Shown here: piece by piece, positions 1-49,199 of the stretch
How the letters are laid out: each line of letters starts with the position of its first letter
Numbering within the stretch: position 1 is the stretch's first letter
Assembly: GCA_051986585.1 (NCBI GenBank)
Contig: JBPYFA010000297.1
Coordinates: 1 to 49,834, forward strand
Reading direction: 5' to 3'
Length of the DNA: 49,834 bases
DNA from: Vicinamibacterales bacterium
GTDB taxonomy: Bacteria > Acidobacteriota > Vicinamibacteria > Vicinamibacterales > 2-12-FULL-66-21
Translations under genes and position numbers: made by a program
The notes under the pieces: generated by a model
Seen by the model: the letters and a program-made list of their open reading frames with translations, nothing else
The model's database searches: none
Told to the model about the DNA's origin: nothing

Positions 1-215
1 GGGAGTCTCGAGTCACAACCAGGAACGAACCAAAAACAAGAACAAACTAAAAAAACAAGGACAAACTAAAAACCAAGAACGAACCCAAAACCAAGAACGA
101 ACCCAAAACCAAAAACGAACCCAAAACCAAAAACGAACCCAAAACCAAAAACGAACCCAAAACCAAGAACAACAAACCACAACCCATAACCTAAAACCAA
201 GAACCAAGAACTGAC
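1..215. repeat. A/C-rich low-complexity tandem array with an 18-nt unit CCAARAACGAACCCAAAA. Five contiguous copies lie at 73-162, with degenerate copies on both sides. Truncated by the window edge.
   Basis: Direct reading: 73-90 equals 91-108, and 109-126 equals 127-144 equals 145-162. The array lies immediately 3' of the stop (224-226) of the minus-strand gene. It uses the same AAAACC/GAACCC vocabulary as the right arm of 19375-19530. Confidence 0.9.
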
Positions 216-223
216 TGACCAGA

Positions 224-2608
224 CTATCTATACAGCAAATACTTCGCCCTCACCGCCCTCCACTTCGCCTCACCCGCCGCCCAGCCGCTGACCACGTCGA
301 GCGGATCGGCGCCACTGCGAATCTGAGCTAATCCTTCCTTCGATCCGAACAGCTTGTCGGCAGACTCCAGCTCGAACTTCGCGCCGTACATCTTGTTCAG
401 CATCGACGCAATCTCGACGCCGACGCGGACCGGCCGGACGGCGGCCCGATCGGTCACGATCATGTAGACGCCCCCGCATTCCTCGTTGGCAAACTTGCTC
501 GCTGTCGGCGTGAAACGCACCGGGTAGAAACGGATGCCGGGAATGCTGCGAGCGTTGAGCGCGTCCGACAATGCGACGCCGTCAATCCAGGGAGCGCCGA
601 CTTGTTCAAACGGCGTGTCGGTGCCGCGGCCGACCGAAATGTTGGTGCTCTCGATCGCGCCGATGCCCGGATAGAGCGTCGCCTGAGTCAGGTTCCGCAT
701 GTTCGGCGACGGGTTGATCCAGGGGAGGCCGGTGGCATCGAACCACTGCTCCCTTCGCCAGTTGCGAACGGGAATCACGGTCAGCTCCGCGCCAATCCTG
801 TTTTCGCCGTTGAAGAGTTTCGCCAGCTCTCCGAGCGTCATTCCGTGCCTGATCGGCATCGGGAAATACCCGACAAAGCTCAACGCCGCCTTGTCGAGGG
901 TTGGCCCCTCGATCTGATAACCGCCGATCGGATTTGGCCGATCGAGGATGACGACCGGCACCTTGCGCTTCGCGGCTTCCTCCAGGACGTACGCCGTCGT
1001 CGTCATGTAGGTGTAGAAACGGGTGCCGATGTCCTGGAGATCGATCACCATCGTATCGATGCCCTGGAACATCGCATCGTTTGGTCTTCGCGTGTCGCCG
1101 TAGAGCGACTGAATCGAGAGCCCGGTCTTTTCATCGGTGGCCGACGGCACGCTGGCATCGAGAATTCCGCGAATTCCGTGCTCGGGGCTGAACAGCCGGA
1201 CGAGCGTCAGCCCCTTGGCGCCATGCAACAGGTCGATCGTCGTCGCGCCATCGCGCGCGCGGCCCGTGTGATTGGTGAGGAGTCCGACTCGCTTGCCCTG
1301 CAGCGCGGCAAAGCTGTTCGCGCGAAGGACGTCGATGCCGCTGAGCACGGGACTGAACGGGGGCGGCGGAGGCGGTGTTCCCGAGGGACCGAAATCGCGG
1401 CCGGTCCAGGCCGATGACGTGCGCACGGCTGGCGAGACGTCCTCGATCGACGATGCCGCGATCGTCGCCACGCGGGCGCGGAGCGGCGTGACGTCGCCTT
1501 TCCCGTCAGGATGAACGCGGTTCGATAGAAACACCACGAACATGCTCGTAACCGGGTCGATCCAGAGCGACGTGCCGGTGAATCCCGTGTGGCCGAAGGA
1601 TCCGACCGGCAGCAGCTCGCCACGATTCGACGAATAGGCCGAGTCGATGTCCCAGCCAAGCCCGCGCACGCTCCGGTCCCACGGGCCGGTCGCGGGCGTC
1701 GTCATCTTCGCGACGGTCAGCGGAGAGAGTATGCGCGTGCCGCGGTAGGTGCCGCCATCGAGGAGCATGCGGCAGAAAATGGTCAAATCGGCAGCGGTGC
1801 TGAATAGACCGGCGTGGCCGGCCACGCCGCCCATCCGTCTTGCAGTTGGATCGTGTACCACTCCCCGGAGCATCGCCATCGCGGGACCTTCGCATGGCCA
1901 CCCAAGCGGCGTGCAGCTTTCGGTCGGAGCGATACGCGGTCGCAGGTTCGCGGGCGGAAGGAACATCGTGTCCTTCATCCCGAGAGGCGCGAAGATATGG
2001 TCGTGCGCAAACCGATCCAGCGGCTCGCCGCTCACGCGGCGCACGATGTCGCCCAACAGGAAGTAATTGATGTCGCTGTAGACGAAACGTTCACCAGGCG
2101 GGGAAGTCGGAACCTCTTCGATCGCCATGTTGATCGCCGTCTCCGAGCCGCTCCAGGCATCGGCCAGATCGAGGTCAGGCCGAAGGCCCGACATGTGCGT
2201 CATCAGATGACGGATCGTGATGTCGGCCTTGCCGTATCGCTCGAAACCGGGAATGAAGGTGGACACGCGATCCGATAGCCGGATCTTGCCCTCTTCCAGA
2301 AGGAGCATCACGCTGGTCGTCGTCGCAACCACCTTGGTCAGGGAGGCAAGATCGAAGATCGTGTCCTCGGTCATCGGCTCCACAGACGGAACCAGCGCGC
2401 GACTGCCAACCGCCCTTTGATACAGGATCCGATCGCCCCTACCGACCACGACGACTGCGCCTGGCAGCTTCTTTTCGCCAATCGCCTGCCGCACGAGCGG
2501 CTCGATGGCTTCCAGTTTCTTCTGCTGATCGGCCTGAGGCGCGGCAAAGGGAATTGAGGATGGTGCTGCCGCCAGCACCAAGAGGATGGCAACGACGAAC
2601 TGTTTCAT
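224..2608 (-). CDS. Secreted fusion protein: N-terminal serine hydrolase (class C beta-lactamase/PBP-like) plus C-terminal DUF1343 (NamZ-type exo-beta-N-acetylmuramidase family)
   Basis: 794-aa ORF with a signal peptide (MKQFVVAILLVLAAAPSS). SxxK motif in DLASLTKVV. A poly-Pro linker (GTPPPPPPFSP) precedes a DUF1343-like stretch (GIDVLRANSFAALQGKRVGLLTNHTG...). Confidence 0.85.
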   Translation of the reverse strand: MKQFVVAILLVLAAAPSSIPFAAPQADQQKKLEAIEPLVRQAIGEKKLPGAVVVVGRGDRILYQRAVGSRALVPSVEPMTEDTIFDLASLTKVVATTTSVMLLLEEGKIRLSDRVSTFIPGFERYGKADITIRHLMTHMSGLRPDLDLADAWSGSETAINMAIEEVPTSPPGERFVYSDINYFLLGDIVRRVSGEPLDRFAHDHIFAPLGMKDTMFLPPANLRPRIAPTESCTPLGWPCEGPAMAMLRGVVHDPTARRMGGVAGHAGLFSTAADLTIFCRMLLDGGTYRGTRILSPLTVAKMTTPATGPWDRSVRGLGWDIDSAYSSNRGELLPVGSFGHTGFTGTSLWIDPVTSMFVVFLSNRVHPDGKGDVTPLRARVATIAASSIEDVSPAVRTSSAWTGRDFGPSGTPPPPPPFSPVLSGIDVLRANSFAALQGKRVGLLTNHTGRARDGATTIDLLHGAKGLTLVRLFSPEHGIRGILDASVPSATDEKTGLSIQSLYGDTRRPNDAMFQGIDTMVIDLQDIGTRFYTYMTTTAYVLEEAAKRKVPVVILDRPNPIGGYQIEGPTLDKAALSFVGYFPMPIRHGMTLGELAKLFNGENRIGAELTVIPVRNWRREQWFDATGLPWINPSPNMRNLTQATLYPGIGAIESTNISVGRGTDTPFEQVGAPWIDGVALSDALNARSIPGIRFYPVRFTPTASKFANEECGGVYMIVTDRAAVRPVRVGVEIASMLNKMYGAKFELESADKLFGSKEGLAQIRSGADPLDVVSGWAAGEAKWRAVRAKYLLYR

Positions 2609-2614
2609 GCAGGG

Positions 2615-2620
2615 ATTATA
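2615..2620 (-). promoter_or_regulatory. Candidate -10 box (TATAAT on the minus strand) exactly 6 nt upstream of ATG 2608; possible leaderless promoter
   Basis: The minus strand reads TTTTATAATCCCTGCATG. No Shine-Dalgarno can fit, and the -35 is not recognisable. Confidence 0.4.
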
Positions 2621-8909: not shown

Positions 8910-8912
8910 CCG

Positions 8913-11475: not shown

Positions 11476-13244
11476 GTGATGACAACACTGACAACTGCGC
11501 GCGGCGGCTCCTGGTTGATCGAAGACACACCGGCAGACTCGGTGTTCACTCCGGAGTCGCTTTCCGACGAGCATCGGCTGATCGCGCAAACCGCTGAGGA
11601 GTTCGTCGCCAATGAGGTGATGGCCGGCCTGGAGCGACTCGAGCAGAAGGACTGGACTCTGGCGCGTGAGCTCGTGCGGCGCGCCGGCGAGCTCGGATTG
11701 CTGGGCACCGACGTCGCGGAGGCACTCGGCGGTGTCGGCCTGGACAAGGTGGCGGCGATCATCGTCGGCGAAGCGGTCGGTCGATCGGCGTCGTTTGCCA
11801 CCACGTTCGGGGCGCAGACCGGCCTGGCGATCACCCCGTTGGTTTGCTTTGGAACCGAGGCACAGAAGGAAAAGTATCTCGGACGCCTCATCAACGGGGA
11901 GATGGTGGTGCGTATGCGCTCAGCGAATCGGGATCGGGATCCGACGCGCTCGGGGCCAAGGCGAGAGCCACGCGACAGCCGGATGGAAGCTTCACCATCA
12001 GCGGCGAAAAGATGTGGATCACCAACGGCGGGTTCGCCGATCTCTTCATCGTGTTCGCCAAGGTCGTCGGCGATGGCGGGGACGCTTTCACCGCGTTCCT
12101 CGTCGAACGAACGTTCCCGGGTGTGAGCAACGGGAAAGAAGAACACAAGATGGGCCTCCACGGCTCGTCAACGACGCCGTTGATCCTGCAGGACGCGCGG
12201 GTGCCGGCGGAAAATGTGCTCGGCGAGATCGGGAAGGGACACAAGGTCGCCTTCAACGTGCTCAACTACGGCCGCTTCAAGCTCGCAGCGATGTGCAGTG
12301 GAGGTGCCCGCGCGATTGTCAGTGAGGCCGCGAAATACGCCGCGCAGCGAAAGCAGTTCGGTCAGCCGATCGCCTCGTTCGGCGCGATCAAGCACAAGCT
12401 CGCCGAGATCGCGATCCGGGAGTTCGCGGTCGAGAGCATGCTGTATCGCACGGCAGCGCTGATCGATCAGGCGGTCGAAGCAGCTGGCCCGACGCCCACC
12501 GGCGACGCGGTGCTCGCCGCGCTGGAAGAATTTGCCATCGAAGCAAGCATCCTCAAAGTGGCGGGCAGCGAAATGATCGATTACGCCGTTGACGAAAACG
12601 TGCAAATCCACGGCGGCAACGGCTTCGTGCGCGACTACGCCGCCGAGCGGATGTATCGCGACGCCAGGGTCAATCGCATCTTCGAGGGGACCAACGAGAT
12701 CAACCGGCTGCTGATTCCAGGCATGTTGATTCGCCGGGCACTCAAAGGCGGCCTGCCACTGATTCCGGCAGCCAAGAAACTGCAGGAGGAGATCCTGACG
12801 CCGTCGCCGGCCGAGCCGCCGTCCGACGAACCGCTGGAAAACGCGAAGCGGACCGTCGCGTCACTGCGGAAAGTGGCACTGATGGTGCTCGGCTCAGCCA
12901 TGCAGACCTACGGTGAGAAGCTGACGGACCGACAGGAGTTGCTCACGCTGGCCGCAGACATCATCATCGATGTGTTCGCCGCCGAGAGCGTGCTGCTCCG
13001 CGCGTCGCGCATGCCGGCAGCGTCGACCGCCGTCGCCGCGGCCGAGGTCTACATCGCGGACGCGGCAGGACGAGTCGAGATTGCGGCCCGCACGGCTCTT
13101 GCTGAAATGACCGACGGGGACAACCTGCGCACACTCTTGGCGGCGCTTCGGCGCCTGCTCAAACCCGCGCCCATCAACACCGTGGCACGGCGCCGGCAGA
13201 TCGCTGACGACATCATCGAGCGCAAGGCTTATCCTTATCGATGA
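11476..13244 (+). pseudogene. Long (about 590 aa) FadE/YusJ-type acyl-CoA dehydrogenase interrupted by a 1-nt frameshift near 11905-11912
   Basis: The N-terminal part reads in the 11476 frame up to ...KYLGRLINGEMV. Homology continues in the 11844 frame as GAYALSESGSGSDALGAKA...EKMWITNGG. One extra G in ATGGTGGTGCG would restore EMVGAYALSE. Confidence 0.85.
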
Positions 13245-13963
13245 TGGTGACTAAGCAGGCTGTCGTCGCGAATCAGCGGCGCGAGCCGAGGGCGAGCGCT
13301 GGCGGGCGCTGGGGGTGGGGCCCCAGCGCAAACCAAAAGAAGCAGACGCAGTCCGCAGTCACCGCGAATCAGCGGCGCGGGTTCCTCGCCGCTCTCTTAC
13401 TCCTGACACTGGCCTGCACGAAGGAAGTTTCCTACGTCGACAGCATCAGCGAATGGCGGACGACGAAGGACGCATTCATGCAGCGATCGCCGGATTCCCC
13501 GATTCCGGCCGATCGCCGCGCTTCGTTTCCACCGCTGAGTTATTTTCCGATCGAACCGGAGTATCGCGTCCCGGCGTCCCTCACCGTCAATCGCACGTCG
13601 GACGTGATCGAGATCCCGACATCCCGCGGTGAACGCCGGCCCCACAACCGGGTGGGCCAATTGTCTTTCACGTTGAAAGGGCGCCTGCTCACGCTGACGG
13701 CGTTCGTTGAAGTCGGTCAGCAGGACGTGAATCACCTGTTCGTACCGTTCGGCGATCTCACCAACGGCACTGAAACCTATCCGGGAGGTCGATACCTCGA
13801 ACTTGACCGGACGCCGACCGGCATCTACGATCTCGACTTCAACCGTGCGTTTCATCCGTTCTGCTACTACAACCCCCAATACGATTGCCCCTATCCGCCG
13901 CGAGAGAACCGGCTCCCGATTCCAATCCGCGCCGGAGAGCGCATGAGCGCGGCGGGACATTGA
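13241..13963 (+). CDS. DUF1684-domain lipoprotein
   Basis: C-terminal FNRAFHPFCYYNPQYDCPYPPRENRLPIPIRAGE is the DUF1684 signature. ATGA overlap with the upstream stop. Lipobox LLLLTLAC sits after an unusually long n-region. Confidence 0.8.
   Translation: MMVTKQAVVANQRREPRASAGGRWGWGPSANQKKQTQSAVTANQRRGFLAALLLLTLACTKEVSYVDSISEWRTTKDAFMQRSPDSPIPADRRASFPPLSYFPIEPEYRVPASLTVNRTSDVIEIPTSRGERRPHNRVGQLSFTLKGRLLTLTAFVEVGQQDVNHLFVPFGDLTNGTETYPGGRYLELDRTPTGIYDLDFNRAFHPFCYYNPQYDCPYPPRENRLPIPIRAGERMSAAGH
13267..13379. repeat. 17-nt direct repeat CGCGAATCAGCGGCGCG (13267-13283 and 13363-13379, offset 96 nt) flanking a 9-bp GC hairpin GCGCTGGGG-n6-CCCCAGCGC
   Basis: Verified by reading. It lies inside the N-terminal coding region of the DUF1684 gene and is in frame. 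Confidence 0.85.
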
Positions 13964-18504: not shown

Positions 18505-18567
18505 GCCGGCGATGGTACGAACCGCACGCGCGTGTGGTCAAGTGGAATTGTCGTGAGCTGGCGGACA

Positions 18568-18700
18568 ACGGAGGTGACGGAGAGCACGGGACAAGCTCTA
18601 ACACGGAGATGCGGAGACACGGAGGTCATTGGAAAAAGCAAACACTCCGTGCCTCCGTGTCTCCGTGTTGATCCTGTCCCGTGCCCTCCGTTACCTCCGT
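18568..18700. repeat. Long imperfect palindrome built from ACGGAG/CTCCGT motifs. Arms 18568-18625 and 18652-18700, with the loop around 18626-18651.
   Basis: The left arm ACGGAGGTGACGGAGAGCACGGGACAAG...AACACGGAG..AGACACGGAGG matches the reverse complement of the right arm CCTCCGTGTCTCCGTGTT..CTGTCCCGTGCCCTCCGTTACCTCCGT, apart from a few mismatches and a 6-nt bulge. Confidence 0.85.
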
Positions 18701-18713
18701 GCCCGCTCGCAAG

Positions 18714-19001
18714 CTACGCCGATGGCAGCGGGTCCTGATGCAGGACCAGCACTGCGAGCTGGACGCGATTCGGCACCCCGAACTTGCGATACACACGCGA
18801 GAGGTGATTCTTCACCGTCTGGAGCCGCAGCCCCAGACGATCGGCGATCTCCTGGTTGGAGCATCCATTGGCGAGCAGCGCCACAATCTGCTGCTCGCGG
18901 GGTGAGAAGCGCGAAGGACGCGCCGCCGCACCGTTCGAACCTTGCACTGCTTCGAGGGCTTGGGGCCTCGGAAGCTCACCGGCGAGTGTTGGAAGCATCA
19001 T
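18714..19001 (-). CDS. Stand-alone LuxR/GerE-type HTH protein (about 95 aa)
   Basis: REQQIVALLANGCSNQEIADRLGLRLQTVKNHLSRVYRKFGV. The internal ATG at 19001 is chosen; the upstream part of the tracked ORF overlaps the neighbouring gene. Confidence 0.8.
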   Translation of the reverse strand: MMLPTLAGELPRPQALEAVQGSNGAAARPSRFSPREQQIVALLANGCSNQEIADRLGLRLQTVKNHLSRVYRKFGVPNRVQLAVLVLHQDPLPSA

Positions 19002-19051: not shown

Positions 19052-19312
19052 CTACGAAACGATGAAGCCCGTGCGAAGGGCGAGCAGGACCAGCTGCAGC
19101 CGAGTCGAAACCCCAAGCTTCGCGTAAAGTCCTGACAGCATGTTCTTTACGGTCTGAAGCTGGATGCCGAGCGTGGCGGCAATTTGCGCGTTCGAATGCC
19201 CCTGGACGAGCAACTGAACGACCTCGATCTCCCGGCTTGTCAAGTAGATACGCGGAATCGGCTCCACTGCAGCGGCGGAGCCGTTCGCTATGGTGTTGAA
19301 CTGTGTCTCCAT
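19052..19312 (-). CDS. Stand-alone LuxR/GerE-type HTH protein (86 aa), a paralogue of the downstream gene
   Basis: REIEVVQLLVQGHSNAQIAATLGIQLQTVKNMLSGLYAKLGV. Confidence 0.8.
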   Translation of the reverse strand: METQFNTIANGSAAAVEPIPRIYLTSREIEVVQLLVQGHSNAQIAATLGIQLQTVKNMLSGLYAKLGVSTRLQLVLLALRTGFIVS

Positions 19313-19374
19313 ACCTCTGATAACGAAGCACAGAGCAAAAGCGCACAGGGTTTAATCGCTGATTTGAGAGGTCT

Positions 19375-19530
19375 GTTCTTGGTTTTCCGTTTTGGGTTCT
19401 CGGTTTCCGTTTGTGGTTTGTGGTTTGTGGTTTGTGTTTTTGAGTTGTCCAACCCCGATGACAGTCAGCCCCGAACCGGAAAAAACCGAAAACTGAAAAC
19501 CCAAAACAGAAAACTGAAAACCGAAAACGG
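19375..19530. repeat. Low-complexity imperfect inverted repeat: G/T-rich left arm (including GTTTGTG x4 at 19409-19436) and A/C-rich right arm (GAAAAC/AACCCAAAAC)
   Basis: GTTTTGGGTT on the left pairs with AACCCAAAAC on the right, and GGTTTTC with GAAAACC. It uses the same vocabulary as 1-215. Confidence 0.8.
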
Positions 19531-19542
19531 GCGCCAACGCCC
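19529..19542 (-). terminator. Intrinsic-terminator-like hairpin GGGCG-TTGG-CGCCC followed (minus strand) by GTTTTCGGTTTTCAGTTTTC
   Basis: It starts directly after the stop codon (19543-19545) of the M20 peptidase gene. The U-rich tract is supplied by the repeat. Confidence 0.55.
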
Positions 19543-25726: not shown

Positions 25727-25762
25727 CGCCTTTCGGCATGAGTCGTGCCTCGAACGGTGGCC

Positions 25763-27489: not shown

Positions 27490-27576
27490 TTTCGGATTTC
27501 GCTGTCGTCAGCCAAAAACAGCCGCATCTGGTTGAGCTCGGGCGCGAAACCCCGCCCGATCGCGCACGGATGAGGA

Positions 27577-27585
27577 TGGTATAAT
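27577..27585 (+). promoter_or_regulatory. Extended -10 promoter candidate TGgTATAAT
   Basis: Read directly. It lies about 110 nt upstream of ATG 27696, and the hairpin at 27636-27678 lies in the predicted leader. Confidence 0.4.
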
Positions 27586-27695
27586 TCTCGCTCTTCCGAC
27601 CCTGATTCTTGGGGCTCTTACGTCCGATAAGTACTCCGTGATTACCCTCCGTCTGTCCGAGGGGACTGCGAATCACGGTTCAGTGGATACCGCAA

Positions 27696-28151: not shown

Positions 28152-28154
28152 AAT

Positions 28155-28203
28155 TGCTGAATGCTGATTGCTGACTGAAAGTCGCCGCAATCAGCAATCA
28201 GCA
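28155..28203. terminator. 17-bp stem (16 of 17 paired) hairpin of TGCTGA/GATTGC motifs between convergent genes
   Basis: 28155-28171 (TGCTGAATGCTGATTGC) pairs with 28187-28203 (GCAATCAGCAATCAGCA). The right arm encodes the last codons (SADC*) of the MutT-like gene. Confidence 0.7.
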
Positions 28204-28607
28204 CTTACAGTAAGTTTCCTTATCAGCTCTGCATCCGCCGGCGGAAAAGGCAATTGCCGGAGTTCCTCTCGCGATACCCACCGTATCTCCTGACCAAGCA
28301 TCGGGCGCACGCCGCCGATTAACGTGCAGGCAAAGAAGTGCAGCTCGACCACACGGTCGGGATACGTGTGCGCGATCGAGAAGACTTCTGTGCCAACGAC
28401 GATCTCCGCATCGAGTTCCTCGCCCATCTCGCGCGACAGCGACGATGCGTGCGTCTCTCCTTCTTCGCACTTGCCCCCAGGAAACTCCCAGTAACCCTCG
28501 AGGTGTACGCCACCGGGACGGCGCGTGACGAGGAAGCGGCCGTTCTCTTCGACGACGGCTGCCGTCACGACGATTCTCGGCAGCGAGAGCGGCGACAAGT
28601 CGGTCAC
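28191..28607 (-). CDS. mutT: MutT-type NUDIX (deoxy)nucleoside-triphosphate pyrophosphohydrolase
   Basis: Intact Nudix box GGKCEEGETHASSLSREMGEELDAEI. GTG 28607 overlaps the upstream TGA (GTGA). Confidence 0.8.
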   Translation of the reverse strand: MTDLSPLSLPRIVVTAAVVEENGRFLVTRRPGGVHLEGYWEFPGGKCEEGETHASSLSREMGEELDAEIVVGTEVFSIAHTYPDRVVELHFFACTLIGGVRPMLGQEIRWVSREELRQLPFPPADAELIRKLTVSADC

Positions 28608-31639: not shown

Positions 31640-33018
31640 TGGCCGCGGATAAACCACCCACTTCGCAGTCTGATCCTTCCGATCCCGTCGTGATCGTCGG
31701 CGGCGGGTTCGCCGGGCTCAGTGCCGCGGCGGTGCTCGCAGAACGGGGGCAACGTGTGCTCGTCGCGGATGCGAGGGCCCGGCTCGGCGGGCGTGCAACA
31801 GCGTTTCGCGACCGCGAAACGGGCGAACTCGTCGACAACGGGCAACACGTCCTTTTCGGCTGCTATCGCGCCACGTTTGAGTTTCTTGGACGAGTGGGTG
31901 CGCTCGATCGCGTCCACGTGCAGCCCTCGCTCGCCATCCCATTTGTCGATCGAAATGGACGCCGATCGCTGCTGCGATGCCCGAAGCTTCCCTCACCATT
32001 CCACTTGCTTGGCGGCGTGCTGAGTTGGGACGCATTGCCATGGCGTGAGAGGCTCTCGGTGCTCAGACTGGCCGCCCCACTACGCCGGGCCCGCGCAGAG
32101 TTGAAGCAGACCGGCGCCGTTTCGGCCAATCCAGCAGGGACCGTCACGGAATGGCTCACGGCCCATGGTCAACATGGACGGCTGCGAAGCTGGTTGTGGG
32201 AACCGCTCGCCGTTGCCGCACTCAATCAATCGCCGGCGGTCGCTTCCGCATCTCCTTTCATCCGCGTCCTGGCGGAGATGTTCGGGCCGGACCCGCGGGA
32301 CTCAGCGCTCGTCCTGCCGACGAGACCGCTGCACGAAATGTATGCGGAGCCGGCGCGCAGTTTCATTGAACAACGAGGCGGCGAGGTGCGCGTGAATGCG
32401 CTCGCGAGAGTCGCGGTTGAAAGCGGACGCGTGAGCGGTGTGGACATTCGGGGCGAGCGGATCGCGACAAGTCGCGTGATCGCCGCGGTACCGTGGTTCG
32501 ATCTCGCGCGGCTTTTCGTGGCGCCCCCCACTCAGCTCGCCGGAGTACTGGCCTCGGCGAACGCGATGGAATCAATGCCGATCGTCACGGTCAATCTCTG
32601 GTACGACCAAGTCCTCATGGACGAACCATTCGTGGGGCTGCCGGGACGCGACATGCAGTGGGTCTTTGACAAGCGAATCGCGTTCGGCGGCAAGGCTTCG
32701 CACCTGTCGCTGGTGTCGAGCGGGGCCACCGCGCTGACGTCGATGAGCCGCGAGCAGTTGACCGCTCTCGCGGCGCGCGAAGTCGAGGAGGCGATGCCGG
32801 CCGCCCGGCACAGCCGGCTGCTGCGCGCCACTGTGGTCAGAGAAAAGAATGCGACCTTCTCGCTGGCGCCGGATCAGCCGCCACGCCCGCCGACCCGAAC
32901 TGCCATTCAAGGACTTTACCTCGCCGGCGATTGGCTCGACACCGGACTCCCAGGCACAATCGAAAGCGCCGTCGTCAGCGGACACACAGCCGCACAAGAA
33001 TTGCTGAGTGGCGATTGA
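31639..33018 (+). CDS. hpnE: Hydroxysqualene dehydroxylase HpnE (FAD-dependent amine-oxidase-like)
   Basis: VVIVGGGFAGLSAAAVLAERGQRVLVADARARLGGRA. ATG 31639 overlaps the hpnD TGA. Confidence 0.85.
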   Translation: MAADKPPTSQSDPSDPVVIVGGGFAGLSAAAVLAERGQRVLVADARARLGGRATAFRDRETGELVDNGQHVLFGCYRATFEFLGRVGALDRVHVQPSLAIPFVDRNGRRSLLRCPKLPSPFHLLGGVLSWDALPWRERLSVLRLAAPLRRARAELKQTGAVSANPAGTVTEWLTAHGQHGRLRSWLWEPLAVAALNQSPAVASASPFIRVLAEMFGPDPRDSALVLPTRPLHEMYAEPARSFIEQRGGEVRVNALARVAVESGRVSGVDIRGERIATSRVIAAVPWFDLARLFVAPPTQLAGVLASANAMESMPIVTVNLWYDQVLMDEPFVGLPGRDMQWVFDKRIAFGGKASHLSLVSSGATALTSMSREQLTALAAREVEEAMPAARHSRLLRATVVREKNATFSLAPDQPPRPPTRTAIQGLYLAGDWLDTGLPGTIESAVVSGHTAAQELLSGD

Positions 33019-33264
33019 TGACTGCGGATTTCCGGATTGGCGATTGCGGATTGAGATTGACGATTGCGCATTGAGATTGACGATTGCGGATTGAAATTGA
33101 CGATTGACGATTGAAATTGACGATTGCTGATTGTTCGATGCACGATCAATCAACAGTCGGCAATCCCAATCAACAATCGACAATCCCAATCAACAATCGG
33201 CAATCCCAATCAGCAGTCTGCAATCACGAAATCCGCAATCGACAATCCGCATTCAGCAATTGAC
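33013..33264. repeat. About 250-nt imperfect palindrome. The left arm is a 20-nt tandem GATTGCGGATTGAGATTGAC (units at 33042, 33062, 33082, 33102, plus a partial unit). The right arm is a 20-nt CAATCCCAATCAACAATCGR tandem.
   Basis: GATTG pentamers at 7+6+7 spacing on the left face CAATC pentamers at the same spacing on the right, about 15 of 20 complementary per unit. The element fills the whole hpnE-thiI spacer. Confidence 0.85.
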
Positions 33265-34443
33265 ATGAATTCGATAGTGGTTCATTACCAGGAGATCGCC
33301 CTCAAGGGTAATAACCGCCCGTGGTTCATCGCGCGGCTGGCGCGCAATCTGCGGGGGGCGACGGCGGATGTCGGCGTCCGAGAGGTCCGCGTGCTGATGG
33401 GGCGAATCGAGCTTGTGCTCGAAGGCAGCGCCGAGTGGCCGGTTGTTCGGGAACGATTGCAGCGCGTCTTCGGGGTGGCAAATTTCGCGAAAGCGGGGCG
33501 CGCGCCGCTCGATGTTGACGCCATCGCCGCGGCGGTTCTGGCGGATCTCAATGGATTACCGGATCCGCGCACCTTTAGAGTCTCCGCCCGCCGCGCCGAC
33601 AAGCGATTCCCGCTCACGTCGCCGCAGATCGAGCGTGAAGTCGGCGGACGGATCAAGGAGGCGAGGGGATGGACGGTCAACCTTGATCATCCGGAATTGA
33701 CCATTCATGTCGAAGCGCTGACCAACGATGCGTTCTACTACTTCGGGAAGGAGTTGGGAGCCGGAGGCATGCCGGTCGGGGTGAGCGGGCGCGTCGCGTG
33801 CCTGTTGTCTGGAGGCATCGACTCTCCGGTTGCCGCCTGGCGGTTGATGCGACGCGGCTGTCGCGCGCTGCTCGTGCACTTTCACAGCTATCCGATTCTC
33901 TCGCGCGCTTCGCAGGAGAAGGCGCGCGAGCTGGCGCGCCTGCTGGCGCGGTATCAATTCCACTCGCGGCTGTTTCTCGTGCCGTTTGGAGAAATCCAGC
34001 AGCAGGTCACGCTCAGTGTGCCGCCGCCGATGCGCGTCGTGATCTACCGACGGCTGATGATGAGAATCGCCGAGCGCATCGGCCAGGCACATCGGGCACA
34101 GGCGCTCGTCACCGGCGAGGTGGTTGGCCAGGTTGCGTCGCAGACACTGGAGAATCTCGCGTCAATCAACAGCGTGGTGACAATGCCCGTGCTGCGGCCG
34201 TTGATCGGCCTGGACAAGGACGAGATCACGGCGGAAGCACAACGGCTCGGCACTTATCCGATCTCGATCATCCCCGATCAGGACTGTTGCACGCTGTTTA
34301 CGCCGCGACATCCCGCGACCAAGGCACGCAGCCGCGACGTCGAGGCCGCGGAGGCGACGCTGCCCGTCGCCCAGATCGTCGAGCAAGCGGCTGCAGCTGC
34401 CGTCGTGGAGGACTTCGTGTTCCCACAACCGAGCCGCGAATAA
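33265..34443 (+). CDS. thiI: tRNA 4-thiouridine(8) synthase ThiI
   Basis: MNSIVVHYQEIALKGNNR, a THUMP-like middle region, and the PP-loop LLSGGIDSPVAAW. Confidence 0.9.
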   Translation: MNSIVVHYQEIALKGNNRPWFIARLARNLRGATADVGVREVRVLMGRIELVLEGSAEWPVVRERLQRVFGVANFAKAGRAPLDVDAIAAAVLADLNGLPDPRTFRVSARRADKRFPLTSPQIEREVGGRIKEARGWTVNLDHPELTIHVEALTNDAFYYFGKELGAGGMPVGVSGRVACLLSGGIDSPVAAWRLMRRGCRALLVHFHSYPILSRASQEKARELARLLARYQFHSRLFLVPFGEIQQQVTLSVPPPMRVVIYRRLMMRIAERIGQAHRAQALVTGEVVGQVASQTLENLASINSVVTMPVLRPLIGLDKDEITAEAQRLGTYPISIIPDQDCCTLFTPRHPATKARSRDVEAAEATLPVAQIVEQAAAAAVVEDFVFPQPSRE

Positions 34444-35629: not shown

Positions 35630-35689
35630 GCAGTCAGACTTCGCTTGACGATCACGGCGAAGTCGGTCTCGCCGAAGCGGTGGCGCATT

Positions 35690-35734
35690 CCAGTTTCCAG
35701 TTTCCGGTAAGTCTTACCGGGGACTGGCAACTGG
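35690..35734. terminator. 22-bp stem (19 of 22 paired) hairpin of CCAGTTTCC/GGAAACTGG motifs between convergent genes
   Basis: 35690-35711 pairs with 35713-35734. The right arm contains the stop and last codons of the antiporter. An 8-bp hairpin GACTTCGC/GCGAAGTC lies at 35636-35663. Confidence 0.7.
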
Positions 35735-36955
35735 AAACCGGGAACTGGCAGCTGGACTCGCCAGCATCCCCAGCACCGGTCCCGCCATGCACGTCGTCAT
35801 CAGCGCCATGATCACCATCATCGTGTACATCTGCGGCGAGAGGATTCCCAGGTCGTAGCCGATGTTCAGGACGACGAGCTCCATCAAGCCGCGTGTGTTC
35901 ATCAGCGCGCCGAGTGCGATCGCATCGCGCCACGCGAATCCGTAGAACCGCGCCGCAACCGAAATCGCGCCGAACTTTCCCGCAACAGCGGCGACAAGAA
36001 CCAGGCCGCAGGCGATCCACGCCTCCGCTGTCAGCTGACCAACCTCGGTTCGCAAGCCCGCATACGCAAAAAACAACGGCAGTAGCAGCGTCGACGTCAG
36101 CGGCTCGATGGCATCCCGCACCGGCGCGCGCAACGACGCGGCGCCCGCCACCGCCACCCCGGCGATGAAGGCGCCAAACAGCGCATGCACGCCGATTGCT
36201 TCAGTGGCCAGCGCGAGAGCGAAGAGAAAGACAAGCGCGCGAAGCAGCGATCCCCGCGGAACCGTTCCTGCGCGTGCCTGACCGAATAACCGGGCAGCTC
36301 GGGGCCTGACGACAACCAGTGCGAGCGATGCGACAACCGCCGTCAAGGTGACGGCCACCAGCGGCGCGTGGAAGCCATTCCCCTGCCCAATTGCGAGCGC
36401 CAGCGCGAGCAAGCACCACGCCGTGACATCGTCGATGGCGGCACAGCCGATCGCGGTGTTGCCAAGATCCGTTTCTTTCAGGCCCCGCTCCACCAGAATC
36501 CGCGCGAGAACCGGAAACGCCGTGATGCTCATCGCGATGCCGATGAACAACGCGAACGTCAGATACGGAACGCCGACCGGCGCATAGCGATCGTGAAGGT
36601 AGAACGACAGCGCGAAACCAAGTGCAAACGGCACGATGATTCCCGCGTTGCTGATGAAAACCGTCGCGCGGGCGCGGCGGCGAAGGCGTTCGACGTCCAC
36701 GTCCATGCCGACAGTGAACATGAAGAGGACGACGCCGAGCTGGCTGATGAGATAAAGAGGAGGCAATGAAGCCGCCGGAAACAGGCGAGTTTCCAGCGAC
36801 GGCGACAGCTGGCCGAGAAGCGATGGCCCCAGCAGAATTCCGGCGAACATCTCGCCGATGACCGCCGTCTGTCCGAGCCGCCGGAACGCCAGCGCCGTGA
36901 TCCGGCCGGCCGATACGATGACGATGATTTGGACGAGAAGAACCGCCAGCGGCAT
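35714..36955 (-). CDS. Cation:proton antiporter (CPA2, Kef/NapA-like)
   Basis: 413 aa and polytopic. The N-terminus LLVQIIVIVSAGRITALAFRRLGQTAVIGEMFAGILLGPS is typical of Na+/H+ exchanger family proteins. Confidence 0.85.
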   Translation of the reverse strand: MPLAVLLVQIIVIVSAGRITALAFRRLGQTAVIGEMFAGILLGPSLLGQLSPSLETRLFPAASLPPLYLISQLGVVLFMFTVGMDVDVERLRRRARATVFISNAGIIVPFALGFALSFYLHDRYAPVGVPYLTFALFIGIAMSITAFPVLARILVERGLKETDLGNTAIGCAAIDDVTAWCLLALALAIGQGNGFHAPLVAVTLTAVVASLALVVVRPRAARLFGQARAGTVPRGSLLRALVFLFALALATEAIGVHALFGAFIAGVAVAGAASLRAPVRDAIEPLTSTLLLPLFFAYAGLRTEVGQLTAEAWIACGLVLVAAVAGKFGAISVAARFYGFAWRDAIALGALMNTRGLMELVVLNIGYDLGILSPQMYTMMVIMALMTTCMAGPVLGMLASPAASSRFPVASPR

Positions 36956-42643: not shown

Positions 42644-43369
42644 ATGACGAACACTCCCTATACCGAAGCGCGGCGGGTCCACGATAGCCTTTTGGCAGCC
42701 ATCGAGAAACGGTGCCTGATCTGGATGGCCGGGCGGCTGCCCGCGTGGGTCAACTCCGATCATCTGACGATGCTCGCCGGGGTTGCGATGCTCGGCGCTG
42801 GCGTGTGCTATTGGGTTGGAACGCCGGCAGCGCTGCTGGTTTCCATAGTCCTACTGGCCCTCAACTGGTTCGGTGACAGCCTTGATGGCACGCTCGCGCG
42901 CGTTCGGCATCACGAGCGGCCGCGGTACGGCTTTTACGTCGATCACGTCCTGGACGCGTTGTGCATGCTGTTCGTGTTTGGCGGACTCATTCTCGGCGGA
43001 CACATCAGTCTCGCGATCGGTGCGGGATTTCTCGTTGCCTACTACCTGCTGCTCAACGAAATCGCCCTCGCGACTCACGCCGTGGGAGTGTTCAAAATCT
43101 CGTTCTGGAAGTTCGGTCCCACCGAGCTGCGAATTCTGCTCGCGTTGGGATCGATCCGATTGATGCAGTCGGATCTCGTCAGGCTGTGGGGCCACGACTA
43201 TCGCTTGTTCGACATCGGCGGTGCGATCGGGATCGTCGGCCTGGTGGTGACATTCATTGCCTCGGCGGTCGCGAACACGAGGACGCTCTACGCGGCAGAA
43301 CCACTGCCGCCGCATCGCGCCTTGCAGTTCGCGCCTCGCGGTTCGATCGAGCTTGAACCGCGAACCTAG
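42644..43369 (+). CDS. CDP-alcohol phosphatidyltransferase family membrane protein
   Basis: Motif GDSLDGTLARVRHHERPRYGFYVDHVLD (DGxxAR...G...D...D). Confidence 0.85.
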   Translation: MTNTPYTEARRVHDSLLAAIEKRCLIWMAGRLPAWVNSDHLTMLAGVAMLGAGVCYWVGTPAALLVSIVLLALNWFGDSLDGTLARVRHHERPRYGFYVDHVLDALCMLFVFGGLILGGHISLAIGAGFLVAYYLLLNEIALATHAVGVFKISFWKFGPTELRILLALGSIRLMQSDLVRLWGHDYRLFDIGGAIGIVGLVVTFIASAVANTRTLYAAEPLPPHRALQFAPRGSIELEPRT

Positions 43370-43536
43370 AACCCAGAACATAGAACCCAGACGTAGAACC
43401 CAGAAAGTAGAACCTACTGGAAACTGGAAACTGGAAGCTGGGAACTAAGCTGGAAACTGGAAGCTGGAAAACTGGAAACTGGAAACTGGGAACTAAACCG
43501 GAAGCTGGAAGCTGGAAGCTGGAAACTAAGCTGAAC
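43367..43536. repeat. Non-palindromic low-complexity array: about 3.5 copies of TAGAACCCAGAN(1-3) at 43367-43415, then a CTGGAAR array (43417-43536) organised in three blocks ending in GGAACTAA
   Basis: Read directly. It starts on the stop codon TAG (43367-43369). The CTGGAAACTGG motif is the complement of the 35690 hairpin arm. Confidence 0.85.
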
Positions 43537-46682: not shown

Positions 46683-47516
46683 ATGTCTTTCGTCGCAATT
46701 ATCGGTGCCGGAACCCTGGGCGGCACGATCGCGCAAACGCTCGCGATTCGGGATCGCATTCCCGAGATTCGGCTGATCGACGCCGAGGAGCGTATCGCTC
46801 AAGGCAAGGCGCTCGACATCCGACAGTCGTCACCGGTCGAAGGATTCAGCACCATCGTCTCCGCCGGCGGGTCGGTCGCGGCTGCCGCGGGCGCGTCCGC
46901 GCTGATCGTGGCCGATCGTGCATCTGACAACGGTGAATTCACCGGCGAAGACGGACTCGCGCTGGTGCGACGGCTCATCGGCATCGAGCAGGCCGCACCG
47001 ATCGTGTTCGCGGGGGCCTCGCAGCGCGAGTTGATGGTTCGGACGCTCGGCGAGCTTCGGGTGCGCGACTCCCGGATCGTCGGCTCCGCTCCGCTCGCGT
47101 TGGAGTCCGGTCTGCGCGCGCTTGCCGGCTTATCGATCGACGCATCCGGCGTCCCGATTGCCCTGAGCGTCGTCGGCGTGCCGCCACGAGACGCCGTGGT
47201 GGCCTGGGAAGAGGCAACCATCTCCGGGCAGCCACTCTCTGCGCACCTTCCGGCTCACACGATCGCGGCGCTCAATTCAAGGATTGCCAGCTTGTGGCCG
47301 CCTGGGCACTACGCTCTCGCGTCGGCGACGACTCGCGTGACCGAAGCCATTGTGCTTGGCTCCAGGCAGCGCCTGTCGTGCTTCGTGAGCCTGCCGCGCG
47401 GACGAGTGGCCTCGATGGCGGTGGAGCTTGGCGAAGACGGCGTACGGCGCGTCGTGGAACCAGTGCTAACGAGACAGGAGAGGACTAGATTGGAGAACGG
47501 GCTCGTGAATCCATAA
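46683..47516 (+). CDS. Malate/lactate dehydrogenase-like protein lacking the catalytic residues
   Basis: The N-terminus VAIIGAGTLGGTIAQTLA...IRLIDA...AQGKALDIRQSSPVEGF aligns to MDH by eye, but the RKPGMSRDDL and GxHGD segments are replaced (see finding). Confidence 0.65.
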   Translation: MSFVAIIGAGTLGGTIAQTLAIRDRIPEIRLIDAEERIAQGKALDIRQSSPVEGFSTIVSAGGSVAAAAGASALIVADRASDNGEFTGEDGLALVRRLIGIEQAAPIVFAGASQRELMVRTLGELRVRDSRIVGSAPLALESGLRALAGLSIDASGVPIALSVVGVPPRDAVVAWEEATISGQPLSAHLPAHTIAALNSRIASLWPPGHYALASATTRVTEAIVLGSRQRLSCFVSLPRGRVASMAVELGEDGVRRVVEPVLTRQERTRLENGLVNP

Positions 47517-47694
47517 TCCCTAATCCGTGATCCCGAATCCCTGATCCGCGAATCCCGAATCCCCGAATCATTGAATCCTCGAATCTCTGCCGGATTCAGC
47601 GCCGAGAGACTCTGCGATTCTTGGATTCGCGATTCGGGATCAGCGATTCTTGGATCAGCGATTCGGGATCAGCGATTAGGGATCAGGGATTCAG
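47507..47694. repeat. Imperfect inverted repeat with the GAATCC/GATTCG vocabulary (the same as the arms of the four-helix-bundle cassette) between convergent genes, with no ORF in the loop
   Basis: 47518-47547 is the reverse complement of 47652-47681 at 27 of 30 positions. An apical mini-hairpin GAATC-n7-GATTC lies near 47580-47596. Confidence 0.85.
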
Positions 47695-48296
47695 TGTGTG
47701 GATTCGCGCGCGTGAAGGGCGAGTCCGCCGGCGAACGCGCCAAGGTGCTGGCGAAGGATCAGGCGGCCGCGATGCAAACGGGACTTCAGCGTCTGCGGCT
47801 TCACGCGGAGAATCGCGCTCGCCTCTTCGGTCGACAATCCCTGGATGTCGCGAAGGATCACCGGCACGCGATAGACCTCCGGCAGGTGCGTCAGCGCCTT
47901 GATCAGGCGATTCCGCAGTTCCGCCCGCATCACCTGATCGTCGGCAAGCGATGACCAGTCAGCGGGATCGTTTCCCGACTGATCGTTGCCGTCGTCCGGC
48001 CTGCGAACTTCATGCGGACGGCTGAACCGGCCGTTCCGCAGCCGCGACATCGCGGTGTTAAAGGTAATCCGATAAATCCAGGAAGACAGCGCCGCGTCGC
48101 CGCGGAACGCGTCAATCTTCCGGTGCACTTTCAGTAACACGTCCTGGGTGACCTCTTCGGCATCCTCCCAGTTTTTGAGATACCGGAACGCAAGCTGGTG
48201 GATTCGCGGTCCGTACGTCGAGGCAAGATCGGTGACGGCCGTGCTGTCCCCCGCCTGCATCCGGCCGATGAGTTCTTGCTCCGCCGGCTGACGCAT
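47691..48296 (-). CDS. ECF-type RNA polymerase sigma-70 factor
   Basis: Region 2 (EDAEEVTQDVLLKVHRKIDAFRG...WIYRITFN) and region 4 (LPEVYRVPVILRDIQGLSTEEASAIL). ATG 48296 is preceded by GGAGG. Confidence 0.9.
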   Translation of the reverse strand: MRQPAEQELIGRMQAGDSTAVTDLASTYGPRIHQLAFRYLKNWEDAEEVTQDVLLKVHRKIDAFRGDAALSSWIYRITFNTAMSRLRNGRFSRPHEVRRPDDGNDQSGNDPADWSSLADDQVMRAELRNRLIKALTHLPEVYRVPVILRDIQGLSTEEASAILRVKPQTLKSRLHRGRLILRQHLGAFAGGLALHARESTH

Positions 48297-48362
48297 CTGG
48301 GGCCTCCGTAAGTAGCAGAACACCGGATGGCCGCGGCTTATTCCGATTTTGAAATTAATCCG

Positions 48363-49052
48363 TTAAGAAGTTGACTTCGTGGAGTTTACTGATGAGGCTG
48401 GGATCAGATCGCGGGCGAAAACAGTACCGAACGCGTCACAGATTGCGGGAATGACCGACTCGAGCGGAAGCCGCTCGCCCGTCAGCCGCTCCAGCGATGT
48501 GACGCCCTTATCCGCAATGCCGCACGGCACAATCAGACCGAAATGGTCGAGCTTGGTCGAAACGTTAAGGGCAAAGCCGTGGCTGGTCACCCATCGCGCG
48601 ATCCGCACACCGATCGCCGCCAGTTTCTCGTCCCCCACCCACACCCCGGTCAGCCGCGACGTCCGATGCGCCGCGATGCCGAACGTGGCCACCGCTTGAA
48701 TGATCATCTCCTCGAGGTCCCGGACGTAACGGTGAACGTCCAACCGATCGGGCTTTAGATCGATGATTGGGTAGCCAACCAGCTGACCTGGGCCATGGTA
48801 AGTGACGTCTCCGCCTCTCCCTGACTCCACTACTTCGACCCCTTCTTCGCGGAGAGTTTCCGCGTTTGCGACGATATGGCTGCGATCGTCGCGCGTCTTC
48901 ACGCCCAGCGTGATAACAGGGGGATGTTCGAGAAGCAGAAGCTGATCCGGAATGGCGTCAGTCTTTCGTTGCTCGACGAGACGCTTCTGCAGATCGATGC
49001 CTTCAGCGTAGGGAATCGTTCCGAGCCAGTGGACCTCGACGATGCGAGACAT
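48363..49052 (-). CDS. lipB: Lipoyl(octanoyl) transferase
   Basis: LLLEHPPVITLG, RGGDVTYHGPGQLVGYPI, AIGVRIARWVTSHGFALNV, VPCGI. Start at ATG 49052. Confidence 0.9.
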   Translation of the reverse strand: MSRIVEVHWLGTIPYAEGIDLQKRLVEQRKTDAIPDQLLLLEHPPVITLGVKTRDDRSHIVANAETLREEGVEVVESGRGGDVTYHGPGQLVGYPIIDLKPDRLDVHRYVRDLEEMIIQAVATFGIAAHRTSRLTGVWVGDEKLAAIGVRIARWVTSHGFALNVSTKLDHFGLIVPCGIADKGVTSLERLTGERLPLESVIPAICDAFGTVFARDLIPASSVNSTKSTS

Positions 49053-49066
49053 ATGAGCGCACACGA

Positions 49067-49199
49067 AAATGCTGAAGGTTGAATGCTGAATGCTGAAGTG
49101 GTTAATTGCTGATTGGGGATTGCGGATTGAACGGTTCTTCAATCAGCAATCAGCAATCCGCAATATCATTCATCATTCAGCATTCAACCTTCAGCATTT
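49067..49199. repeat. 133-nt palindrome with a perfect 26-bp outer stem, inner GATTGC/GCAATC pairing and an apical GATTGAA-n6-TTCAATC hairpin
   Basis: 49067-49092 (AAATGCTGAAGGTTGAATGCTGAATG) is the exact reverse complement of 49174-49199. It lies between the E2 stop (49201) and the lipB start (49052). Confidence 0.95.

Follow-up and report, generated by a model that had tools for sequence, protein, structure and literature searches.

The window analysed here is a 49,834-nt stretch of DNA (contig JBPYFA010000297.1) from a soil acidobacterium of the Vicinamibacterales (Acidobacteriota). It holds 53 genes, which Pfam identifies as housekeeping genes only. Spacers after these genes are occupied by arrays of short tandem repeats; several arrays are paired with a complementary array, and one such pair encloses a gene of the PF05635 family. 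Genes were mapped with a codon-usage gene caller trained on Pfam-supported genes, together with Pfam scans of all 53 genes; the names assigned in an earlier interpretation based on the letters alone (the sequence-only reading) agree with this map. Tandem arrays were called with Tandem Repeats Finder (TRF). Hairpin strength is expressed as z, which sets the RNAfold minimum free energy (MFE) against dinucleotide shuffles.

Repeat arrays at gene ends in the window

The elements of the window are listed below; D1 and D2 denote the two arms around the PF05635 gene, and the interval in brackets is that of the hairpin.

17-215, unstranded: single arm of (AAAACC/GAACCCAAAACCAAGAAC)n called by TRF, with no fold of its own (z +2.0)
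18568-18700 (18560-18705), unstranded: nested hairpin of 8-nt units with an ACGGAG core; arms 87-88% complementary; MFE -102.6, z -12.9
19372-19528 (19370-19532), unstranded: hairpin of (GTTTTSG/GTTTGTG)n and (AAAACNG)n; z -3.9
25548-25726, plus strand: D1, 5' arm of (AATCNNN/AATCNNNN)n, supported by TRF, by cofolding and by homologous arms at other PF05635 loci
25735-25748, plus strand: motif GGCATGAGTCGTGC, 14 nt upstream of the PF05635 ATG
25763-26158, plus strand: gene for a 131-aa four-helix-bundle protein (PF05635 23S_rRNA_IVP, 63.7 bits against a Pfam cutoff of 33.8; TIGR02436, 69.7 bits)
26155-26292, plus strand: D2, 3' arm of (NNNGATT)n, from the stop of the PF05635 gene to that of def (minus strand)
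28149-28209 (28145-28212), unstranded: short hairpin (TGCTGAA/TGCTGAT ... GCAATCA); 23-nt arms 87% complementary, z -7.1
32999-33265 (32995-33268), unstranded: longest hairpin, (GATTGNN)n then (CAATCNN)n; 116-nt arms 77% complementary; MFE -123, z -9.6
35688-35756 (35685-35760), unstranded: short hairpin (TTCCAGT)n / (ACTGGRA)n; 24-nt arms 88% complementary, z -4.9
43362-43533, plus strand: single-stranded double array called by TRF, (GAACCYA)n then (CTGGAAR)n; lag-7 autocorrelation 0.58
47506-47693 (47500-47700), unstranded: hairpin without an open reading frame (ORF), AATC ... GATT; 58-nt arms 83% complementary; MFE -103.5, z -8.5
49067-49199 (49060-49205), unstranded: nested hairpin with outer AATGCTG and inner ATTGCGG/CAATCAG units; 31-nt arms 97% complementary, z -11.6

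The repeat unit is a degenerate heptamer, 7-8 nt long according to TRF, with a fixed core of 4-5 nt and 2-3 variable positions. TRF finds period 7, in some cases 8, with 3-16 copies at all loci named in the sequence-only reading except 13267-13379; the motifs of 5-6 nt described there are the conserved cores of these longer units. Consensus units include AATCCCT, GATTGAC, CAATCAG, ACTGGAA, AATGCTG, AAAACCG, GTTTGTG and ACACGGAG. Lag-7 autocorrelation is 0.45-0.60 in the spacers with elements, compared with about 0.25-0.3 elsewhere, and TRF also reports higher-order periods of 14-23 nt. When the smallest period of each TRF array is counted over all loci (1.33 Mb), the histogram peaks at 7: this period accounts for 118 arrays, period 6 for 14 and period 8 for 18. 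By kind, the elements belong with the short tandemly repeated repetitive (STRR) sequences of cyanobacteria and the GGGAATC repeats of Xanthomonas: all are heptanucleotide-repeat arrays, a resemblance that the sequence-only reading had not noticed.

An architecture of arm, loop and complementary arm had been proposed for every locus. This describes seven self-contained strong hairpins, with z from -4 to -13 and arms 77-97% complementary; in 49067-49199 and 18568-18700 irregular units are mirrored between the arms. It does not describe the other loci. The array at 1-215 (17-215 in the present calls) has a single arm; it is cut by the start of the window, and a possible partner arm would fall beyond the edge. 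Its vocabulary is that of 19372-19528. The double array at 43362-43533 is without a complementary arm and folds weakly (z -3.2, -0.24 kcal/nt). D1 and D2 do not fold alone and pair only with each other, across the 430-nt gene; their cofolding energy is -160.8 kcal/mol, compared with -83 kcal/mol for shuffled arms (z -15), over an alignment of 139 nt. In the window as a whole, elements are 48-270 nt long, have undefined termini and use at least six motif vocabularies, several of which can co-occur inside one element.

As the sequence-only reading had it, every element in the gene map touches a stop codon. Arrays enclose the stops of thyX, the hpnE-like, Ldh-like, CDP-alcohol transferase and NUDIX genes and the antiporter. 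Those of g27696 (27696-28151), the PF05635 gene, def, the extracytoplasmic function (ECF) sigma factor, E2, M20, LuxR and NamZ lie 0-20 nt from one. ORFs which extend into arrays pick up a few arbitrary C-terminal residues; D1 includes the thyX stop (25563-25565) and codes for the final ~5 residues of ThyX. By gene orientation, none of the seven divergent spacers is occupied, all four convergent spacers of at least 39 nt are, and so are six of the 19 co-directional spacers of at least 30 nt.

Three of the hairpins lie in spacers between convergent genes. That at 28149-28209 overlaps the stops of both g27696 and the NUDIX gene; it is missing in the related locus L081, where the two genes overlap. 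The hairpin at 35688-35756 lies between deoC and a Na+/H+ exchanger gene and covers the last codons and stop of the latter, while 47506-47693 extends from the Ldh-like stop to the ECF-sigma stop. The vocabulary and order of this last hairpin are identical to those of the PF05635 arms.

Other elements follow the same pattern of contact with stops. The hairpin at 32999-33265 begins inside the hpnE-like stop codon and ends 1-4 nt ahead of the thiI start; 49067-49199 lies between the E2 stop (49201) and the lipB start. The double array at 43362-43533 runs from the CDP-alcohol transferase stop to 44 nt before the receiver gene. On the minus strand, 17-215 ends 8 nt from the stop of the NamZ/beta-lactamase gene (224-2608), 18568-18700 starts 14 nt past a LuxR/GerE stop and is 64 nt ahead of the next start, and 19372-19528 follows the M20 peptidase stop (19543), from which a small GC stem (19529-19542) separates it.

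Three further points concern single loci. Two tandem LuxR/GerE-type helix-turn-helix genes (18714-19001 and 19052-19312, minus strand), merged in the ORF list as one 210-aa ORF, are bracketed on both sides by heptamer hairpins. Within the double array, (CTGGAAR)n at 43416-43533 presents GGA every 7 nt, about 16 times; it resembles the multi-GGA decoy RNAs which bind CsrA/RsmA, and it has no Rfam match. The stretch 13267-13379, listed earlier as a possible member of the family, is rejected: its z is only -1.3 and it contains a different repeat, two copies of the 17-nt direct repeat CGCGAATCAGCGGCGCG around the GC-rich palindrome GGGGTGGGGCCCC, within the called N-terminal region of a DUF1684 gene. 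A similar insert of ~130 nt, centred on GGGGCGTGGGGCCCCC, is present in the related locus L011 (10878-11008) and absent in the 95%-identical L054.

Distribution and turnover in related genomes

Relatives were collected by scanning the HpnC-like protein against species-representative genomes, which gave 80 loci. The best matches are Vicinamibacterales metagenome-assembled genomes (MAGs), with protein identities of up to 77% and conserved synteny. Spacer and location statistics rest on 938 kb of Vicinamibacterales sequence with 906 spacers, and on outgroup loci with 361 spacers.

Arrays occupy 101 of the 906 Vicinamibacterales spacers and 6 of the 361 outgroup spacers. Of the ~55 independent Vicinamibacterales assemblies, most contain them, also in the interior of contigs 1.8-2.2 Mb long. 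The concern that the elements might be assembly artefacts confined to one contig is thus removed, since arrays lie inside many independent contigs of up to 2.2 Mb. These genomes are otherwise compact, with a median spacer of 18-25 nt, and 81% of array bases fall within the 10.8% of the DNA that is intergenic.

The association with gene 3' ends that had been proposed from the window alone holds on this larger scale. Over all spacers, occupancy is 21% for convergent, 10% for co-directional and 6% for divergent gene pairs. For spacers of at least 40 nt, a threshold which is partly circular as the element itself lengthens its spacer, the values are 31/66 (47%), 55/242 (23%) and 9/91 (10%), respectively (p = 2e-7 for convergent compared with divergent). 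In co-directional spacers, the median distance from the upstream stop to the array is 5 nt. A fold of -0.38 kcal/nt or below is found in 54 of 100 occupied spacers.

Array content changes rapidly. In the hpnE-thiI spacer, heptamer hairpins of at least nine vocabularies are found across genomes (among them GATTGNN in the window, ATTGCTG in L003, AATGCCG in L009, CACGAAG in L013, GCTGAAG in L029, GTTCTTG in L038 and AATGCTG in L054); in many relatives this spacer is short and repeat-free. L011 and L054, which have ~95% DNA identity, share the hpnE-thiI hairpin nearly base for base. A 135-nt AATGCTG hairpin in the thyX-def spacer is present in L011 only; L054 has ~20 nt of unrelated sequence there, and no target-site duplication is seen at this one pair of filled and empty sites. 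At another orthologous spacer, L011 (19279-19399) has an AGCTGSM heptamer hairpin and L054 (19026-19178) has a non-heptamer palindrome of similar length, which indicates that the content was replaced wholesale rather than mutated. Comparison of orthologous spacers, which the sequence-only reading had put forward as a check, therefore shows motifs that differ or are absent, that is, gain, loss and motif change.

Each genome has vocabularies of its own, which it uses repeatedly. Of the array pairs separated by more than 600 nt within a locus, 8.1% have an identical heptamer, compared with 0.7% of pairs between loci (~11-fold, p = 1.6e-11). This sharing argues against one transposing miniature inverted-repeat transposable element (MITE), and equally against purely independent slippage in situ; a copy process between spacers is needed. 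The sequence-only reading had argued against a single MITE, with which the variable lengths, the many vocabularies, the undefined termini and the missing target-site duplication agree. Its preference for in-situ generation has to be modified: a purely in-situ origin fails on the within-genome sharing and on the travelling of AATC/GATT arms with PF05635 genes into at least 19 contexts (see below).

A related possibility is that the arrays are MITE-like elements, or elements like the repetitive extragenic palindromes and bacterial interspersed mosaic elements (REP/BIME), which are mobilised in trans by a transposase encoded elsewhere. The REP/BIME of enterobacteria and pseudomonads are single conserved units of 20-40 nt, mobilised by REP-associated tyrosine transposases (RAYTs). 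As in the arrays described here, they are intergenic imperfect palindromes of genome-specific sequence, common between convergent genes and after stops; they have also been proposed to be mRNA 3' stabilisers or terminators. Mobilisation in trans would be in keeping with one vocabulary in several spacers and with presence/absence differences between close relatives. Against it, the elements are 7-nt arrays of variable length with no conserved unit across loci, no fixed length and no terminal inverted repeats, and vocabularies are mixed within one element. The empty site of the L011/L054 pair has ~20 nt of unrelated sequence and no duplication, and Pfam identifies no transposase or RAYT among the 53 genes of the window, the only region to which this negative applies. 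This origin is accordingly judged very unlikely.

The PF05635 gene between complementary arrays

The ORF at 25763-26158 occupies the 'loop' between the AATC and GATT arms in the thyX-def spacer. The sequence-only reading gave its fold class correctly as a four-helix bundle but did not recognise the family, PF05635 ('S23p'). ORFs of this family are known from the intervening sequences (IVSs) of 23S rRNA in Leptospira and Coxiella, in which complementary termini form a stem that is cut by RNase III (PMC4990558). A PDB sequence search with the 131-aa protein alone gives no match; the family profile weakly matches 2gsc (XCC0516) and 2rld.

A search gave 278 homologues of this protein; those from soil metagenomes, at 50-86% identity, number in the hundreds. 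Exact-protein look-up provides the contexts of six homologues: three are at the thyX-def site, two between a GerE-type response regulator and a short-chain dehydrogenase/reductase (SDR), and one between an aldo-keto reductase and an outer-membrane factor. All six share with the window an (AATCNNN)n array upstream and an (NNNGATT)n array downstream. The outermost arm units at the looked-up loci are AATCACT/AATCCCT and AGTGATT.

A metagenome scan with the family alignment added 75 loci; motifs were counted at the 58 full-length loci with at least 120 nt on each side. At least five AATC upstream together with at least five GATT downstream are present at 48 of these 58. Mean AATC/GATT counts are 9.9/0.5 upstream and 1.1/9.7 downstream. 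The loci represent at least 19 upstream and at least 19 downstream gene contexts, with arm lengths of 20-200 nt that vary between close relatives. Many of the PF05635 contigs in this set (among L087-L161) are only 1-1.5 kb long and end within the flanking arrays. This indicates that arrays break short-read assemblies, so that cassettes and hairpins are likely to be under-represented in MAGs.

The arm vocabulary varies with protein identity: AATC arms accompany proteins of 51-79% identity, GATCC-type arms those of 49-50%, AATTAACG/CGTTAATT arms those of 35% and ATTAA-type arms those of 33%. In AT-rich metagenome contigs, PF05635 genes of 33-35% identity lie between inverted arrays. A fragment of the Xanthomonas protein XCC0516, taken from a PDB alignment, served as a further query. 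It locates the gene between accB and accC in Xanthomonas arboricola and Lysobacter, where (GGGAATC)4 precedes it and (GATTCCC/CATTCCC)4 follows. Inverted arms of the GATAAG type flank a Winogradskyella copy, and a Carboxylicivirga copy is ambiguous. PF05635 genes are thus embedded in heptamer-array hairpins in Acidobacteriota and Xanthomonadaceae, and probably also in Bacteroidota. Among the papers searched, none was found to connect PF05635 genes with flanking heptamer arrays.

A motif of the form GGYAY-N5-KTGC, represented in the window by GGCATGAGTCGTGC, stands 14-17 nt before the PF05635 gene in 46 of 65 loci, compared with 3 on the opposite strand. From its sequence, it could be a sigma-54 -24/-12 promoter, which would give a near-leaderless mRNA, or a small GGCAY/GTGCC stem-loop.

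At the def-proximal site, different states can be compared. The window and L081-83 hold the cassette; L001 (130-235) has an ORF-less hairpin with identical terminal AGTGATT units; L068 and L029 have a single AATC array; L002, L004, L020 and L028 have nothing. The series hints that the PF05635 cassette replaces ORF-less hairpins at orthologous sites.

As judged from its sequence, the cassette has the architecture of a 23S rRNA IVS. Both comprise a PF05635 ORF of ~120-130 aa within complementary termini that form a long stem, neither has a transposase, and both have a scattered distribution which suggests horizontal spread. They differ in that RNase III excises IVSs from within 23S rRNA helices, whereas the cassette lies between protein genes and its arms are heptamer arrays of 20-200 nt. 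Rfam finds no rRNA in the window; the cassette is between thyX and def here and between other protein genes elsewhere.

Two further possibilities are rejected. One is a diversity-generating retroelement, the class whose pentameric accessory protein, Avd, is a relative of the four-helix-bundle protein. The neighbours of the PF05635 gene are thyX and def, Pfam identifies no reverse transcriptase among the window genes, and TRF reports no 100-nt direct repeat of the template/variable type in the window. Likewise, complementary array pairs 600-1400 nt apart in L005, L012, L046 and L079 are not cassettes; they are separate spacer elements flanking ordinary genes (a metallo-beta-lactamase-type (MBL) hydrolase, a CDP-OH transferase, def and homoserine dehydrogenase). 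In L005 (5406-6480), an SDR gene lies between thyX and def with its own GGTGCCA/TGGCACC heptamer hairpin on each side, which indicates that new gene junctions acquire their own hairpins.

The arrays and the PF05635 gene may form one system, in which the protein would bind heptamer arrays in DNA or RNA form and help to maintain, spread or process them. ORF-less hairpins would then be non-autonomous partners or landing pads, and the cassette a free-living counterpart of the 23S rRNA IVS. This is a tentative reading, less likely to be right than wrong by some distance. It is favoured by the position of the gene between inverted heptamer arrays in most of the acidobacterial loci and likewise in X. 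arboricola, Lysobacter, a Bacteroidota genome and AT-rich metagenome contigs. The shift of arm vocabulary with protein subfamily, the many contexts reached without a transposase and the existence of ORF-less hairpins with matching termini (47506-47693; L001 130-235) point the same way. Yet the 50-kb window has a single PF05635 gene, and an AATC/GATT core is seen in just 23 of 117 period-7 arrays. Neither tblastn nor the family hidden Markov model finds a further copy of the gene in the 1.28-1.38 Mb of related loci, although ~100 spacers of the syntenic relatives bear arrays; as a general companion of arrays in recent events, the gene is therefore rejected. The protein could be a mere passenger which recombines into arrays.

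A wider form of the same idea would join several phyla. STRRs, Xanthomonas GGGAATC repeats, acidobacterial arrays and the PF05635 genes of IVSs would then belong to one system, with the gene always inside a heptamer hairpin, its subfamily co-varying with the vocabulary, spread into ORF-less hairpins through recombination, and an Avd-like pentamer that would bind, process or propagate the arrays. This, too, is doubtful at present.

Origin, possible role and comparison with known repeats

The explanation that appears fairly probable as a whole is that heptamer arrays have colonised the DNA downstream of genes across Vicinamibacterales, spread by copying, and act at mRNA 3' ends. Arrays would lengthen and shorten through slippage or unequal exchange, both of 7-8 nt units and of higher-order ones of 14-23 nt; this is suggested by the higher-order periods and by the 20-200 nt arm lengths seen in close relatives. 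In about half of the occupied spacers an array lies next to its complement, and the two make up a long imperfect palindrome. The handful of unit vocabularies per genome, recurring in many spacers, points to a copy process between spacers, most likely recombination or gene conversion between arrays. Such recombination could also move the cassette into ORF-less hairpins without a transposase or duplications, probably by a double crossover of its arms with a resident hairpin.

If transcribed, the palindromes would give stems of 50-130 bp at mRNA 3' ends. The most likely effect would be a transcript stop or processing, with the stem as a barrier to 3' exonucleases or a substrate of RNase III. It is also proposed that the elements persist at 3' ends because they are harmless there.

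Several results weigh against this explanation. No U-tract is found at the elements of the window, and scans for canonical terminators show no enrichment (18 sites compared with 14.9 expected, and 4 compared with 10.3). Of 29 hairpins in co-directional spacers, 13 have the more stable fold on the sense strand and 16 on the antisense strand; with no asymmetry, RNA-level selection based on G-U pairs is not detectable. About half of the occupied spacers contain just one array or fold weakly, which a hairpin role leaves unexplained. Shuffling the unit order of arm D2 leaves the D1/D2 pairing unchanged (z -0.3); complementarity is therefore at the level of motifs, with no maintained register. The gradient from convergent through co-directional to divergent spacers is equally predicted by tolerance, since no promoters are disrupted. 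Finally, the mechanism of array spread is itself inferred.

Further scans for known RNA features are negative. Terminator consensus sites coincide with no element, except for the small GC stem with the T-rich array at 19529-19547, and the elements are not assigned to the intrinsic terminators, which have a GC-rich stem and a U-tract. Canonical promoter sites are not enriched and do not overlap elements. Rfam at gathering thresholds has no match in the whole window, and there are no tRNA or tmRNA genes in it.

Much of this could also be expected of functionless satellite DNA, produced anywhere by slippage and fold-back errors and cleared by selection from coding and promoter-bearing DNA, so that it piles up after stops. 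The rapid turnover with often empty spacers, the folding without strand asymmetry, the motif-level pairing of D1 and D2, the variable arm lengths among close relatives and the ORFs which gain arbitrary residues on entering arrays are all consistent with such an origin. It accounts less well for a vocabulary common to several spacers of one genome and for cores of 4-5 nt which are conserved while 2-3 positions vary. The AATC core is kept around PF05635 from acidobacterial proteins of ~50% identity to Xanthomonadaceae, and, of the convergent spacers with 40 nt or more, almost half hold an array despite the compactness of the genomes. Satellite DNA without function is a possible explanation, but not a likely one.

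Several known repeats resemble the elements. In Xanthomonas, Rehm et al. (2015, PMC4692102) report ~185 arrays of the heptamer GGGAATC, dispersed over ~180 intergenic sites; the inverted pairs among them, 70-75 in number, could fold back into stem-loops. Positions that overlap a stop codon or are no more than 50 bp from one are favoured, and coding DNA and the spacers of divergent ORFs hold few copies. Transcription is seen for most copies, and they are not conserved between close species (PMC4692102). The same paper reports GGGGAYT arrays in Nostoc, interprets the repeats as formers of G-quadruplexes and sees no link to mobile elements (PMC4692102). The arrays of the window genome share with those of Xanthomonas the 7-nt tandem units, inverted pairs, proximity to stop codons and rarity between divergent genes, and the GAATC core of Xanthomonas resembles the GAATC/GATTC vocabulary found here. 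In contrast to the single G-rich unit per genome in Xanthomonas, the window genome has at least six mostly G-poor vocabularies with degenerate units; its arms are much longer (up to 116 nt), vocabularies are nested in one hairpin, and the phylum is different. A PF05635 link is not given in PMC4692102, while the present analysis finds it in Xanthomonadaceae too.

A role in structures other than hairpins would be suggested by these precedents. The arrays might form G-quadruplexes or i-motifs, or serve as a platform with multiple sites for a regulator that binds single strands, for which the GGA repeated every 7 nt at 43416-43533 is an example. Quadruplex formation has been demonstrated for GGGAATC oligonucleotides (Rehm et al., PMC4692102), some vocabularies here have G or C triplets (GGGATTC, AATCCCC), and single arrays make up about half of the occupied spacers. 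Most units in the window contain no GGG (AATGCTG, GATTGAC, AAAACCG, CTGGAAA, ACGGAG) and cannot form quadruplexes, which makes this role improbable for the family.

Among the long simple repeats of bacteria, heptamers are the most over-represented. Those of heterocystous cyanobacteria, the STRRs, are said to have been described by Mazel et al. in 1990. They resemble the acidobacterial arrays in being tandem heptamers with several families per genome, intergenic and lineage-specific. They are described mainly as direct arrays, for which palindromic pairing and stop-codon position are not defining, and occur in cyanobacteria rather than Acidobacteriota. STRRs are mentioned in PMC4692102 and PMC5088731. 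Direct repeats of the heptamer TAACTGA are intergenic in Beggiatoaceae, cyanobacteria and Bacteroidetes, with a patchy phylogeny (PMC4679880); unlike the elements described here, they are mostly located just upstream of starts, consist of one unit and are direct only, apart from one inverted case. Heptamer arrays have also been recorded in Geobacter (PMC2700814).

Other features of the window are separate from the arrays. A conserved non-coding stretch at 27560-27650, upstream of the unannotated gene 27696-28151, contains a TGGTATAAT box (extended -10-like) and a leader ending in CCGATAAG; it is recognisable in at least 15 related genomes, and 27470-27720 has no Rfam match at E <= 1. An acyl-CoA dehydrogenase at 11476-13244 lies in two frames, with the PF02771 N-terminal domain in ORF 11476-12126 and the middle and C-terminal domains in ORF 11844-13244; the split may reflect a frameshift, a pseudogene or a sequencing error. 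ThyX (23964-25565) has 533 aa and two Thy1 stretches, about twice the usual length, and this long form is kept in relatives (533-589 aa).

The elements belong to the known heptameric-repeat class, of which they are an unusually rich form in Acidobacteriota rather than a new kind of repeat. Genomes with many vocabularies each, long hairpins, and gain and loss between relatives that are 95% identical make the origin and function of such repeats tractable in this lineage. There is a practical consequence for the annotation of soil MAGs, in which arrays break short-read assemblies and shift stops by a few arbitrary C-terminal residues. What stands out most is that PF05635 genes are consistently embedded in such hairpins, which ties intergenic heptamer arrays to the IVSs of 23S rRNA and provides a testable hypothesis for both: the arrays become a candidate nucleic-acid partner of the S23p protein, and IVSs would join a wider class of intergenic cassettes.

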